From: Eledone cirrhosa
Taxonomy: Eukaryota
NCBI GenBank assembly: GCA_964016885.1
Contig: OZ024740.1
Location: 181,846,001 to 181,910,000, forward strand
DNA: 64,000 nucleotides
Direction: 5' to 3'
Position numbers and translations under genes: made by a program. The notes under the pieces are model-generated. The model was not told the origin of the DNA, did no database searches, and saw only the letters and a program-made list of their open reading frames with translations. Positions 259-37,012 of this stretch are shown one piece after another. Position 1 is the first letter of the stretch. Every line of letters starts with the position of its first letter.

Positions 259-452
259 AGGAACCAGTAAGACCCCGACAGCTGAGCTCAAGCCGTTTTG
301 ACGGCTAATTCTGGTCCAGAATTAGCCGTCGAAACGGCTTGAGCTCAGCTGTCGGGGTCTTACTGGTTCCTATTACCCACTCTACTACCTCAAGTATTGA
401 GTACTTTGGTGCGTTATGGTCCACCTGGTTCCTTACCACATTTCCTTTGTTA
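257..452 (+). mobile_element. Fold-back PLE pseudo-LTR mini-insertion (family A): 58-bp-arm palindrome plus about 80-bp tail
   Basis: 257-314 is the reverse complement of 316-373 with one mismatch, axis at 315. The right arm has the hammerhead 3' half GAAA(331-334)-stem III-GTC(351-353). Flanked by (TA)n; near-identical inverted copy at 6706-6900. Confidence 0.75.
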
Positions 453-557
453 TATATATATATATATATATATATATATATATATATATATATATATATA
501 TATATATACATATATATATATATATACATATATATATATATATATATATATATATTA

Positions 558-662
558 TGCGAGCAAGACAATCACTCTTGCCTCAAGTGGGACTACCCCC
601 GTCCAAACCCATGCAAGCGTGGAACACGGGCGTTAAACGTTGATGATGATGATGATGATGAT
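558..662 (+). mobile_element. RTE/SINE-type 3' tail remnant ending in (GAT)n
   Basis: CCCATGCAAGCGTGGAACACGGGCGTTAAACG(TGA)n resembles the 3' end of the RTE at 58517. Confidence 0.65.
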
Positions 663-740
663 ATATATATATATATATATATATATATATATATATATAT
701 ATAAAGAAGAAATTAAAAGATGGTTAAAAAAGTTCCATAT

Positions 741-809
741 ACTTTATTATGCGCATTTCGAAAACAACATAATCCTGGGACAAAAATTGTGTTCTCAACA
801 GATAAAATA
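741..809 (-). ncRNA. Degenerate minimal type I hammerhead ribozyme (core CTGTTGA)
   Basis: Minus strand reads TATTTTAT-CTGTTGA-stem II-GAAA-TGCGCA-TA-ATAAAGT; core A6 is mutated. Confidence 0.6.
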
Positions 810-917
810 TGGTAACATGATATGAGGCCTAAAAACACTTGTGAACAAGAAAGTGTCCAAACAACAATGTTGACTGGACACTCTCTTGTTCACAAGTCTT
901 TTTAGATCATGTTACCT

Positions 918-987
918 TATTTTATCTGATGAGGACACAATTTTTGTCCCAGGATTATATTGTTTTCGAAATGCGCATAATAAAATA
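918..987 (+). ncRNA. Minimal type I hammerhead ribozyme
   Basis: Stem I TATTTTAT(918-925)/ATAAAATA(980-987), CTGATGA at 926-932, stem II G933..C967, GAAA at 968-971, palindromic loop III TGCGCA, predicted cleavage after A979. Confidence 0.8.
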
Positions 988-32654: not shown

Positions 32655-32980
32655 ACATCATCATCATCACTATTGTTTTTAATGTCCGCTTTTCCACACT
32701 TGCATGGGTAGGAACGTCCTTCTCACCACGACACCTCTCTACACGTCGCAATCCTTTGTCATCACCTCTGTGAGTCTCAGTGATTTAAGTTCAGCTCACA
32801 CAACCTCTGCCCAGCTCTTTCTTGGTCTACCTCTATGACAACTTCTTTCCGCTGGCACTTCTTCACCCAAGGATAATTATTCATGTGCATCACATGTCCA
32901 AACCAACACAGTCTTCTCTCTTGCACACCACCTCAAATTCCTCTTAAACCCAACTTCTCCTTGAACTCATCCAAGCAAAT
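32655..32980 (-). mobile_element. RTE 3' fragment (other old RTE pieces at 28795-29075 -, 45985-46460 +, 57780-57960 -)
   Basis: VQERRLCWFGHVMHM-like coding, RGRPRKSWAEV and a (GAT)n tail. Confidence 0.8.
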
Positions 32981-35894
32981 GTCTCTCTTTTACATATTTA
33001 TACACAGAATGAAAAAGAGTCTACCATTTTACTTGAGTTTATAGTAATTATCAGTCTGTGTCATGTCGACTTCTGTAATTCTCAATTGATATTATCTTTT
33101 CTTTGCTTTCAATACAAATCTTCATTTTAACCATTCTATAAAATTCAACTAATTTTCAACAATACATATTGTCATTTCATTACTTAGCATCAACTAATGC
33201 ATTAAATCTTTATTTCGAAATCAAGTATCTTTTTGAGGATATATTTATTTCTAACACGTCTCGTATCAGAAGAATTTTTTAACATAGGCCTGCAGAAAAT
33301 ATATCTCTAATGGTTTTTTTTCTTTGGAATTATTTCCCTGTAAAATTTTCAAGACTCTATTTTCTTTGTTAACATCAAGTTCTGTTGAAGACATACTTCC
33401 TGACTTTTAGATAAAGCCAATATTTAAATATTGAATAATAGTCCTCCACATGGAGTCGTCAACATTATGTTTCGATTTATATACATTCATTATTACTATT
33501 CTGCCAGCAATCAACGTTGGTTCACATTTATTACTTGTTTTCATGAATGCAATATCTATCTCTTCCTTTCTATATTCATGTGTATATGTGCTTGCCTGCT
33601 TACATACACTGGCATTTTAAAAAATCTGTTCCAATGTATTAAAGCCAAGTATCTAGACTTGAAGATTTCCTTCAACCTATATTTGAGACAGTTTTTCATT
33701 GTTTTGGTTATGGGAAAGAAACTGCAATAATCCACTTCTTCTCCCCTCCAAAACTGATCAAAGTTGATGTTCAACTTAAACAACTGCAAATCTACTCTCA
33801 CACATCACCACAGTTCCTGCATGACCAGTCAAACCATGAAAGATAACAGCATGTATCGCACAATCTATCGGCTTTCCTATCTGATAATTTCCGCCTCTCA
33901 TCAAAAAGGTCTCATCCAACTTCATGGAATCTTCTTTCCACTACTTCTCAAATATGGTCTCATGAACAGTACCCTCATGGGTAAGGTTTTCACATTAACT
34001 GCTTGTTGGTATCCAATTCCATGCTACACATGCTAGATAAATTTCCCAAACTATCTCTTTCTCCACCACTACAATGCACGCATACATGTCATGCTCAACA
34101 TTACCTCATATCAACTAATCAGACAGCCTTGATAATGTTCTGTCTTCAAGCAATGTACCCAAGAACTAGACCCTATCCTCACTAAACTTTTTTATCTCTT
34201 TCTCCTCTTCTTCAAGGATACATTATCATTGTCTTAGAAAATGTGTTGCAGTTGTGTCTCATTCCTAAGAAAAGCAGGCCTTACTAATTGTACTAAATAT
34301 TCTATTATTACACTCACTCCCAAAATCTCAAAGGCAATGAAGACAGCCATTAACAACTATCTTCTCCAATACCTTCATTCTATTTTCTTTCTCTATGGTT
34401 AATACTCTGAAGCATGATTAGTTATTAAGATTGTGTTTTTAATTCTCACTAAGGCTGTGAATTTTATTTGAAATTAAGTTAAGATTTTGGTATTATAGAA
34501 CATCCACTTCGAGTTCAGTGGGGGAAACAAATCTTTTTCTCATTTCTTTTGTGTGCTATCAACTCATCTGACCTTCTAGATTTTTGCAATCAACTTTTTT
34601 TCCCAGATTAGAGTTAGGGTTGAGGTTAGGATTTTCGTTTTCCAGAAAAAAATTCAGTTGTGAGCATTAGGATTACTTGATAGCACAAAAAAAAAAAATT
34701 AGGAAAAATAATTACTTCCCCCACGAGAGGTGAAACTCTGATGGTGTTTTTGCCCACTTACTTCCTTCTTTTTCTACAAAGCTTTTCGTTTCTGAATGGT
34801 TTGGATTTCATAAAAAATCATAAAGAAAACTCCAAAGAGTGGGGTTGATCCAAGGATGGGGGAATGCACCTACTCTATTCCCTCCATTTTCCTGGTAAAA
34901 CGTCAATGACAATCATCCTGGTCAGAATAGTTAATCATATATAAAAGAAAGGAGGAAAAAAGTTTTTTCTCATCGAAATAGATGGTGTGTTGATTAAATT
35001 AACCAAATTTGTTTTTCTCACTACATTCTGTATAACACCCAATTTACTCTTAATTATATAGTTTCTTCTTTGCAAGGCAAGTGCCACAATGCAGAGAAGA
35101 TAAAGGTTTTAAAAATTACGTTTGTGACTCAATTTCAGTTTTTGTTTCAGAACATTTCATTATAGTTTGACCTTGGTTATGAAGAAAGTAAACTATGCTG
35201 AACATAATTGTGTAAAAAAAAAAAACATATGTTTTAGATTTTATAATGTTGTATTCTACTAAACCTTTCAAGTCTTTTCATCATGATTTAGTGTCTGTAA
35301 ACTGCTACTTTTCTGTTGGATTGTCAATTATATTAACTTTACTTCGACAGACATGGTAAAAGCAACAAATTACATTATTTTTAACAGATACATACTCAGA
35401 AAAAAAAGTCCCAGAATTAATGAAGATACATCTAAGTTTTGCATGTTTTTTAATTTGTCTGTATGTCAGTCTTTTTATATGTTAAAATTATTTAACAGTG
35501 TTTAAAGTGAGATCAACAAAATGGACTGATGGAAACATTATTCTTTTGATAACTGTAAACAAAAGATATGATCATCGCACCTCTTTGATGTAACATTTTT
35601 ACATTTCCTTCAGGAATTTGAATTCTCTTTTAATCATAGTATACAAAAGACAAAATGATAGCATCAATAGTATGCTTAAGTTTGGGTTACACAAAGTATG
35701 CTCAATTAAATATTCATAAATGATGATGAGTACATTCAGATCATCTTTGGATAAACACAGGCAAAGCTGTATGGTTAAAATGCTCACATCTCAACCAAGT
35801 AGTCTTCAGTTCTATTGAATTGCATTATCTCTCATGAGTGATTTTGGTAGATAGAAGCTGTAAGAATGTTTGTTGTATGTATGTGTATGCATAA

Positions 35895-36430
35895 TCATCA
35901 TCAATATTAACATTTTAACTATATTTTTCCATGCTAGCATGGGTTAGATGGGCAATGCTAGGGCAGGTGACCATGTCTTGCACATATAGCACTGATTTTT
36001 AGCTTGGTTTCTACAGCTAGATGCTCTTCCTAATGCCAACCTCATTTACTGATAGTATTGGGTGCTTTTTATCATGTCACCAACACAACCACAAGGTGTG
36101 GATTGGATGCTTTTGTGTCACCAACACTGCCACTTTACAGTGTGGACTGTTTGCTTTTTGTCATGATACCTACATGAACACTTTACAGTGTGGTCTGGGT
36201 GCATATGCATATATTTCCAGTTTGCACTGTAAAGTGGTCGTTTTGGTGTCACAATAAAAAGCATCCAGTTCACACTGTAAACTGGTTGCATTAGTAAAGG
36301 CATCCAGCCATAGAAATAAAGCCAGAAACAATTCTGTATGAGCAAGACACAGTCATCTGATCTGACTTTTCTCACAACAGGAGAACTCATCTAACCCATA
36401 CTAACATGGAAAGTTGATGATGATGATGAT
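35895..36430. mobile_element. Two RTE 3'-UTR copies in inverted arrangement, with about 45-bp internal tandem repeats (similar single copy at 55326-55615)
   Basis: (CAT)n..CCATGCTAGCATGGGTTAGATGG at the left and CATCTAACCCATACTAACATGGAAA(GAT)n at the right; TTTACAGTGTGGACTGGGTGCTTTT-like units. Confidence 0.75.
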
Positions 36431-36457
36431 ATATATATATATCATTCTTATTTACAT

Positions 36458-36716
36458 GTATTTAGATTTTTATTGTGTATTAATCTGTTATACATGTTTC
36501 ACAGAGGATTGGCTCAGGGTCACCCATAGAAATTATGGAGCTGGCTCCATTATTGATCTGCCCTTCAGACTGATGATCTGATAGGTCAATACACAATAAA
36601 AATCTAAATAATTATAAAGGAAACTTCATTGTTTTTATTAATATATACACTCTGCCTGTGCATTGAGTGCTTTTTTTTGTACCACCGCCAGTAATTAACT
36701 GAATCACATACACAAT
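36458..36716 (+). mobile_element. Decayed fold-back pseudo-LTR insertion (family D) with tail
   Basis: TATTTAGATTTTTATTGTGTATT / AATACACAATAAAAATCTAAATA inverted arms; CTGATGA on the right arm; GAAA-CATGTA-TA on the left arm minus strand; ACTC..GAGTGCT tail. Confidence 0.55.
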
Positions 36717-36745
36717 ATATATATATATATATATATATATATATA

Positions 36746-37012
36746 AGAACAAAAGATGGTTAAAAGAGTTCCATGTATTTTATTATGCGCATTTCAAAAA
36801 CAAACATCATCATGCAATAATATTTGTGTTTTCATCAGATAAAACATGAAGACATGATATGAAGGTTAAAAAACACTTGTGGATAGTTCAGTTTTAAATC
36901 AACATATTTGTTCTTATATATTATGTATACTCCAGTCCTACAAACTGTAGAGTGCTTATTATCCGATATCTGCATTGCTTTATTGTACTACAATAAAACT
37001 CACCTCCTACAT
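36746..37012. mobile_element. Family B insertion: minus-strand arm with hammerhead plus a plus-strand tail
   Basis: Homologous to 715-845 and to the tail at 1031-1110; TA-flanked. Confidence 0.75.
36776..36846 (-). ncRNA. Minimal type I hammerhead ribozyme
   Basis: Minus strand reads TGTTTTAT-CTGATGA-AAACACAAATATTATT..GATGATGTTTGTTTTT-GAAA-TGCGCA-TA-ATAAAATA. Confidence 0.75.

Follow-up and report, generated by a model that had tools for sequence, protein, structure and literature searches.

A small bulged hairpin opens the tail of Penelope-like elements (PLEs) that fit the Hydra clade, and of non-coding repeats that appear to be their passengers, in a 64,000-nucleotide stretch of the Eledone cirrhosa genome (contig OZ024740.1, positions 181,846,001 to 181,910,000 of the forward strand; hereafter the window) and elsewhere in the same genome. 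Judged from sequence and position, this hairpin probably serves as an RNA signal by which the reverse transcriptase (RT) is bound or positioned at the proximal of two sites for internal initiation of target-primed reverse transcription. PLEs are the closest relatives of telomerase reverse transcriptase, and their choice of start site and their one-ended tail have been a standing question since the tail was first seen. To our knowledge, the sole biochemical study, on one vertebrate Poseidon element (PAc), found initiation at two internal sites but gave no sequence rule that could be carried over to other elements. With its conserved base and covarying stems, the hairpin would be a concrete, mutable RNA element for an assay of that type.

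The window is rich in (TA)n and contains many short repeats with the order (TA)n, inverted arm, forward arm, tail, (TA)n. Endonuclease-bearing PLEs are known to insert in this way. A preliminary description of it had pointed to a motif, ACTC-N12-17-SAGTRCT, at the start of the tail in five otherwise dissimilar families. All of the sites that it listed are present, including TCGAGTGCT at 3471, where a truncated copy of the family at 11781 (family C) retains the motif's 3' half; the observation is real, and the signal is stronger and broader than first written. The strict pattern matches seven times in the window against 0.47 expected, and none of 100 dinucleotide shuffles gets to seven. In an independent sample of 600 kb from the same genome, consisting of six 100-kb blocks from five other contigs and a distant part of C1, the pattern matches 29 times, with 28 of the matches inside recognisable tails and one inside a repeat resembling a short interspersed nuclear element (SINE). 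The reversed 600-kb sequence gave six matches, while 300 decoys with permuted letters gave a mean of 3.6 and a maximum of 15, none attaining 29.

Because multiple copies per family inflate such counts, families are the fair unit. Local alignment and covariance-model matches indicate that the hairpin is carried by about 10–12 mutually unalignable groups. When the tails and the upstream 120 nt were compared by local alignment, groups A, J12, B, C, D, E, F, G, H and I gave z values near 0, and the related pairs B/B', C/Cw, H/H2 and A/A2 gave z values of 11–25. The count of five dissimilar families in the window stands as five unalignable groups, the coding family at 4810 included, but the hairpins at 1031 and 36929 are not independent: their tails are homologous throughout (z 18.5) and constitute a single family, B/B'.

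ACTC and GAGT form the outer stem of the hairpin, which is located at the start of the tail and has the order RCUC, a variable inner stem of 2–6 bp, a loop, a 3' bulge of 1–2 nt, GAGY and then RCU. In each of 10 family representatives a Watson-Crick inner stem of 2–6 bp is stacked on ACTC/GAGT, and its sequence differs by family (TACT/AGTA, CAGTT/AACTG, CAA/TTG, TGC/GCA, GTCC/GGAC, TAAGGT/ACCTTA, TGT/ACA and CGT/ACG). The 3' bulge is 2 nt long with T first in nine of the 10 families and 1 nt long in family E, and the loops are often A/C-rich. MAFFT aligned the inner stems inconsistently, loop lengths being different, and the counts made with the pair counter cover the outer stem and no more than the two inner pairs next to it. 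Complete inner stems were scored with our own script; by this measure, those of the 10 representatives exceed shuffled inner sequences with a Fisher p of 2e-7. In an alignment of 11 families (A1), 96.8% of the cells are paired compared to 14–55% with the partner slid, and the first inner pair is UA in six rows and CG in four.

A covariance model built from alignment A1 gave 63 matches at E <= 1 in 664 kb. In the alignment of these matches (alignment A2), which, being fitted to the model, leans in its favour, the outermost pair is AU in 49 rows, GC in three and GU in two, and inner pairs are UA in 32 and CG in 17, and AU in 29 and GC in six. The outermost pair goes from A-U to G-C in concert, both in alignment A2 and in published consensi read by eye. 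The pairing of ACTC with GAGT that had been proposed holds, and the stem extends inward with compensatory changes. Since G-U pairs on the sense strand would be A-C mismatches on the complementary DNA (cDNA), RNA is favoured over the cDNA strand as the folded molecule. The motif as first written was too narrow, because the covariance model picks up variant families that the strict pattern misses; the variants are GCTC...GAGC-ACT, GCTC...GAGC-CCT, GAGTACC and one with a 28-nt inner part. Families with the G-C closing pair live alongside the A-U type in one genome, and the G-C type matches the coral and sea-cucumber consensi described below. The family E hairpin at 4810–4832 has CAGT where most other copies have GAGT. 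The rest of the tail folds weakly (per-family p 0.03–0.47; Fisher p 0.002 over 10 groups with mononucleotide shuffles).

The insertion ends track the hairpin closely. (TA)5+ starts 15–100 nt downstream on the same strand in 54 of the 63 model matches, compared to 6.3% of random positions, and of the nine remaining matches six can be recognised as members of these families whose flanks have decayed or differ. The hairpin is almost confined to positions 30–110 nt ahead of a (TA)n junction. In every family the 3' ends at (TA)n are of two discrete kinds, a tail-less end 4–12 nt before the hairpin and a tailed end 29–80 nt after it. Relative to ACTC, and with a TA ambiguity of 2–3 nt given that TA is present at both junctions, the tail-less ends lie at −8 (nine copies) and −4 (one copy) in family A, at −9 and −7 in C (six copies), at −8 and −7 in B, at −4 in F (three copies), at −5 in I, and at −12 and −10 in J12 (three copies); the tailed end of family A lies at +72 in 16 copies. 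The motif had been placed a few nucleotides past the point where the tail-less arm stops, which is borne out by the inverted-repeat arms of the window, stopping at 373, 1031 and 6784 (0–5 nt from the motif), and by the 4–12 nt seen in the sample. Mirrored insertions in the window have one tailed and one tail-less end each. Of 51 tailed insertions that were automatically evaluable, 21 carry, at the opposite (TA)n junction, an arm that is inverted and lacks the tail, and in 18 of these 21 the arm stops 5–10 nt before the hairpin. The ends are also poor in G, with 5 of 120 letters in the 12 nt before the hairpin and 11 of 120 in the last 12 nt of tails versus 18.6% in the sample.

When 1163 flanks ending at (TA)n were clustered, 33 clusters had at least three members. 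Seven of them carry the strict motif, two carry variants and two are tail-less ends of motif families; the remaining clusters are other repeats and microsatellite debris. These data support a conserved cis element at the proximal tail boundary that is common to unrelated non-coding families and coding elements, and they show it to be restricted to a subset of the repeats inserted in (TA)n, with seven strict and two variant clusters of 33; the coding carriers fit the Hydra clade. The Neptune-like tail at 45919–45952, which had been said to lack the motif, has no match to the hairpin covariance model.

The coding family at 4773–6452, family E, fits the Hydra clade by its sequence features. In Craig et al. 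2021 (PMC8557442), this clade is described as PLEs with a C-terminal endonuclease (EN+) that insert in (TA)n, are short (<3 kb) with one open reading frame (ORF), have DKT and RWK, lack CCHH in the endonuclease, and have a CxCX5C linker motif and a hammerhead near the 3' end. Family E resembles them in its (TA)n insertion, short single ORF, DKT and missing CCHH, and by eye may also have a hammerhead near the 3' end. The genome contains 39,984 first-look candidates for family E copies; 150 of them were scored, and open frames reach 632 aa. Full-length copies have the order hammerhead-like 3' untranslated region (UTR), hairpin, tail, ~160 nt, ATG, ORF, 3' UTR and tail-less end, with the hairpin ~220 nt before the ATG. 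In L082, a full-length copy, the unit from hairpin to tail-less end is ~2.5 kb with one long frame; family E copies have (TA)n flanks. L082 exceeds one unit in length and lacks a tail at either end, which indicates a template longer than the unit (tandem or circular).

The 591-aa frame of L082 has no cysteine between a GIY-like VIY and a YIG-like YVG, and the L081 frame contains SDKTNNIYEVD (DKT for DKG) and an N-terminal RRLRWRA, that is, RWR and not RWK. The family E N-terminus, MDLYELNYSLKNIPTPS, parallels the published Hydra-1_Obim protein, and the frame aligns with the Hydra rows of a supplementary figure of Craig et al. At the CxCX5C linker site the window copy has FSCRKPEAC and L082 has CSFRKPEAC, so that the two decayed copies have retained one each, and not the same one, of the first two cysteines; the X5-C spacing agrees with the motif. 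By eye, the 3' end contains a CTGAGGA...GAAAC core followed by a palindromic helix III. The window copy at 4850–6452 has 57–89% tblastn identity to the 591-aa frame, and its tail-less end is at ...AACCACTTCT, after which tailed copies go on to the hairpin. A second coding family, J12, has ~40% protein identity to E and carries the GAGTACC version of the hairpin. Outside the hairpin, no similarity to the coding families E and J12 is detectable in families A, B, C, D, F, G, H and I. Divergent RT matches with 28–45% identity to E, in sample blocks B0, B1, B2, B3 and B4, have no hairpin within 600 nt downstream.

Standard libraries miss the elements of the window although CTGATGAG...GAAA cores are visible. 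Rfam gave no match of any kind, hammerheads included, on the whole window at gathering score; on 1–12400 at E <= 1 it gave no hammerhead and 41 sub-threshold matches, which are generic hairpin or microRNA-like and lie on palindromes and (TA)n. Pfam found neither RT nor GIY-YIG in the 591-aa frame (L082:3441–5213) and reported DUF3557 only, below its cut-off.

Table 1 Positions of hairpins, tails, arms and coding copies. Plain numbers are window positions; loci outside these are given with their L number.
Feature	Position	Strand	Remarks
Family A hairpin	379–405	+	ACTC / TACT-loop-AGTA / TT bulge / GAGT, then ACT; 35.1 bits
Family A tail remainder	406–450	+	then (TA)n
Family A inverted arms	257–314 and 316–373		left arm tail-less at (TA)n; right arm stops 5 nt before hairpin
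Second family A hairpin	6752–6778	−	absent from preliminary description; found by pattern and covariance model
Second family A copy, tail remainder	6707–6751	−	
Second family A copy, arms	6784–6839 and 6845–6900		
Family B hairpin	1031–1058	+	inner stem CAGTT/AACTG, bulge TC; tail remainder 1059–1109
Family B arms	696–821 and 906–1031		CTGATGAG...CGAAA hammerhead-like core ~928–978, by eye
Family B' hairpin	36929–36956	+	inner stem CAGT/ACTG, bulge TA; tail remainder 36957–37012
Family C hairpin	11781–11803	+	25.9 bits; tail remainder 11804–11866
Family C arms	10366–10423 and 10684–10741		unrelated ~1 kb insertion between arms and hairpin
Family C copy truncated within hairpin	3471–3537	+	3' half TC-GAGTGCT and tail remainder, joined to inverted arm
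Family D hairpin	36649–36671	+	inner stem TGC/GCA, bulge TT; tail remainder 36672–36715
Family E hairpin	4810–4832	−	inner stem GTCC/GGAC, 1-nt bulge; 21.2 bits; tail remainder 4773–4809 (−)
Family E 5'-truncated decayed copy	4850–6452	+	opposite orientation; RT and GIY-YIG frame pieces, 3' UTR
Family E full-length copy, L082	L082:2212–5470	+	more than one unit; tail-less at both ends; between (GA)n and (CT)n-(TA)n
G-C closing-pair hairpin (GCTC...GAGC, then ACT/CCT)	L035:3807–3848	+	
G-C closing-pair hairpin	L035:3931–3972	−	
G-C closing-pair hairpin	L037:40–73	+	
G-C closing-pair hairpin	L041:3934–3967	−	

The insertion that splits the family C copy between forward arm and tail occupies 10745–11760 and holds a tandem array of ~36-nt units at ~11040–11300. 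The 5' UTR of family E has a ~37-nt direct duplication, with AGCAGATTCT...GTTTGGCTT present twice, at L082:3040–3150 (+) and in L081 (−), and ~100 nt past the distal end lies a degenerate look-alike of the hairpin 3' half, CTGAGAGTGCTCTA. The distal end itself has an unrelated 7-bp stem.

The hairpin also appears in other phyla, as read by eye in the six Hydra consensi of File S7 of Craig et al. 2021 (PMC8557442). Hydra-2_Amil (coral) has at its 3' end GCTC, a 5-bp stem, a loop, the returning stem, TT, GAGC and ACT, and Hydra-2_Ajap (sea cucumber) has the same architecture at its 3' end with a 4-bp stem and a TA bulge. Two such hairpins lie 35 nt apart before the ATG at the 5' start of Hydra-1_Ajap, while Hydra-1_Crog (sea louse) has one near the 3' end with one mismatch and a looser one at the 5' start; a second hairpin is present, then, in two of the published consensi. 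Hydra-1_Amil has a weak variant only and the Hydra-1_Obim (octopus) consensus has no such hairpin. Most octopod families close the stem with A-U and the coral and sea-cucumber consensi with G-C, which means that both sides have changed.

The motif had been put forward as undescribed. No conserved tail hairpin in Hydra-clade or other PLEs was found in the openly searchable full-text literature, a body that leaves subscription papers outside, and the words hairpin and stem-loop have 0 occurrences in the main text of Craig et al. 2021 (PMC8557442). However, the idea that two internal RT start sites in a stem-loop region delimit the PLE tail was published for Poseidon PAc in 2024 (PMC11167929), a study left uncited by the preliminary description. 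The new part would be the clade-wide hairpin with a conserved base; an RT start-site signal is of a known kind, and such a role is plausible for the sequences described here.

We propose that the RT would bind the hairpin on a template RNA longer than one unit and begin cDNA synthesis immediately 5' of it, in a stretch that is poor in G and contains UA, with which the nicked (TA)n end may pair. Starts at this proximal site would produce the tail-less end, and starts at another site further downstream the tailed end. With two start sites the tail would be the RNA between them, as measured for Poseidon PAc. The same enzyme would copy the non-coding hammerhead families in trans, which would be why these have kept the hairpin. 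In a family B-like stump at 6480–6640, only the last ~35 nt of a tail (on the reverse strand) are left, and they directly abut a forward arm whose own end lacks a tail; this suggests a short cDNA from the distal start that was cut off inside the tail. If the hairpin is a recognition signal, it would explain the trans mobilisation of many non-coding hammerhead families, would serve as a marker for annotating the Hydra clade and its passengers, which the Pfam scan (one frame) and the Rfam scan (window) miss, and would represent a minimal template handle for an internally starting RT, of interest for RT-based insertion tools.

Several points weigh against this proposal. The function of the hairpin is inferred from position and conservation, and the ends lie 4–12 nt outside the hairpin, which makes the analogy with PAc inexact. 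The distance from hairpin to distal end varies among families over the range given above, and the distal end is without explanation. No second hairpin follows the distal end in the two families with read-through sequence, E and J12: with filters off, the covariance model has no second match between the first hairpin and the ORF in L081 and L082 (E) or L042/L043 (J12), and a structural matcher run on the sample plus 13 extra loci gave 103 hairpin-like sites with one same-strand pair 10–150 nt apart, which is unrelated. A 240-nt fold around the L082 hairpin is no stabler than shuffles (z = 0.30), and there is no larger stable structure. The base (ACTC/GAGT and GCT) is kept in sequence besides pairing, which would also suit recognition of double-stranded DNA. 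The family representatives used for alignment and stem scoring were chosen after the matches had been inspected, and the hairpins of the published consensi rest on reading by eye. Finally, the module could be shared through template switching and not through selection in each lineage.

Conservation of the base raises the alternative that the element is a recognition site in DNA, in which the GIY-YIG endonuclease or the zinc-finger linker reads ACTC...GAGTGCT and cuts near the tail, with the RNA fold incidental, and in which cutting in existing copies builds tandem or mirrored arrays. PLE copies do accumulate head to head and in tandem. The endonuclease of D. virilis Penelope needed tail sequence to recognise and cleave a plasmid target, as related in PMC11167929, and here the outer stem and GCT flank are conserved in sequence, with no double change at pairs 8-69, 9-68 and 10-67 among the 55 distinct rows of alignment A2. 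A duplex site, however, has no need of an inner stem whose sequence is wholly different among families while its pairing and bulge are kept, nor of an outermost pair that switches from A-U to G-C in concert, and the insertions lie in (TA)n and not in the tails of other copies for 54 of 63 matches. We therefore regard a DNA site as unlikely.

The hairpin might instead be an element of RNA processing or stability: it might help the hammerhead to fold, mark the 3' end or circularisation, or be a relic of a duplicated helix III. In families A, B and E the hairpin lies 25–70 nt after hammerhead-like cores identified by eye, and the PAc ribozyme cleaved only with protein present (PMC11167929). Moreover, File S2 of Craig et al. 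2021 gives ACTC/GAGT as helix III of the hammerheads of Hydra-2_Amil, Hydra-1_Ajap and Hydra-2_Ajap; its presence in both helix III and the base of the tail hairpin may be coincidence or may hint at the origin of the hairpin. Against this, GAA stands directly before the stem in none of the 11 aligned hairpins, and no Rfam match to a hammerhead or other ribozyme covers the hairpin even at E <= 1 on 1–12400, results that rule against the hairpin being a hammerhead helix III. In addition, its distance from the ribozyme core varies among families, and it is the insertion ends, which reflect cDNA starts rather than RNA cuts, that track it. A processing role appears to us quite unlikely.

We consider it very unlikely that the hairpin has no present function and is a fragment inherited or captured from one ancestral tail, by descent or recombination. 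Some sharing by descent is evident from the nearly identical A-type and J12-type hairpins, related pairs of families exist (B/B', C/Cw, H/H2 and A/A2), and dispersed copies are neutral fossils that by themselves are no sign of selection. Yet in ~10 groups whose surroundings cannot be aligned the hairpin retains the sequence of its base, the bulge and inner stems that pair although their letters differ; the proteins of the coding carriers E and J12 share only ~40% identity; and the architecture persists, by eye, in cnidarian, echinoderm and arthropod consensi (PMC8557442).

A bolder reading, to which we assign little credence, is that the hairpin and the G-poor UA stretch together form a telomerase-RNA-like module, in which the anchored RT would copy and recopy UA by slippage and thereby make and lengthen (TA)n. 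If true, this would account for the (TA)n load of the genome and would mean that hairpin-anchored internal templating predates the split of PLEs and telomerase. Less likely still is a transcription signal, such as an element of an internal promoter or a binding site for a transcription factor within the pseudo-long terminal repeat (pLTR) upstream of the ORF that non-coding families would also need: the hairpin does lie upstream of the ATG in full-length copies and PLE transcription likely starts from a pLTR promoter according to Frangieh et al. (PMC11167929), but a single strand that folds is indicated by the covarying stems and by G-U pairs on the sense strand, and a promoter leaves the insertion ends 4–12 nt before the hairpin unexplained.

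The families described here would be Hydra-clade members other than the published ones. For endonuclease-bearing PLEs, Craig et al. 2021 (PMC8557442) describe a pattern of an inverted 5'-truncated copy beside a forward copy with a tail at one end, and attribute the tail to endonuclease-mediated resolution, unlike the start-site reading that we prefer. The closest counterpart to the latter is Poseidon PAc (Frangieh et al. 2024, Mob DNA, PMC11167929), whose protein cuts both strands of AT-rich DNA and whose RT initiates inside the template, at two sites close together in a stem-loop region, with the tail as the segment that they enclose. PAc and the Hydra-clade families are alike in their one-sided tail, two discrete 3' ends, AT-rich target and mirrored products from both DNA strands. 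Both also have a template that exceeds one unit and a stem-loop in the region of the start, with a hammerhead upstream in PAc and hammerhead-like cores upstream here. The G-poor insertion ends (4% before the hairpin, 9% at tail ends) recall the AC-rich start region of PAc. The two systems differ in that PAc belongs to the Penelope/Poseidon clade, with starts mapped biochemically inside an AC-rich stem-loop 111–118 nt into the ORF and a tail of 30–40 bp, whereas the present families have ends 4–12 nt before a 5'-UTR hairpin and tails of ~60–110 nt. The hairpin here, in contrast to that of PAc, has a conserved sequence common to families and phyla.

Animal non-LTR (non-long terminal repeat) retrozymes (PMC7229834; Li et al. 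2026 bioRxiv 10.64898/2026.07.22.740005) are non-coding hammerhead repeats that are thought to be PLE passengers, as are the non-coding families here. Retrozymes are defined by tandem ribozyme units and circular RNA, whereas most copies here are dispersed mirrored stumps. The words tail, hairpin and stem-loop have 0 occurrences in the excerpts of Cervera and de la Pena 2020 (PMC7229834), and those of Li et al. 2026 mention neither a tail nor a hairpin.

In stringent partnerships of long interspersed nuclear elements (LINEs) with SINEs, for example those of zebrafish LINEs (PMC4176376), non-coding passengers keep a 3' stem-loop that is recognised by the autonomous protein. The hairpin here is similar in that the same stem-loop is found in the coding families E and J12 and in unrelated non-coding families. 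It differs in that the enzyme would be a telomerase-related PLE RT with GIY-YIG, the stem-loop is internal to a longer template and has two alternative ends, and initiation is proposed to occur upstream of the hairpin and not at a 3' terminal repeat. Telomerase RNA, which serves a related RT, has a boundary helix 5' of the template that stops synthesis. The hairpin here lies 3' of the start, unlike that boundary helix, and the likeness is an analogy, in that an RNA helix beside the copied stretch could position the RT in both cases.

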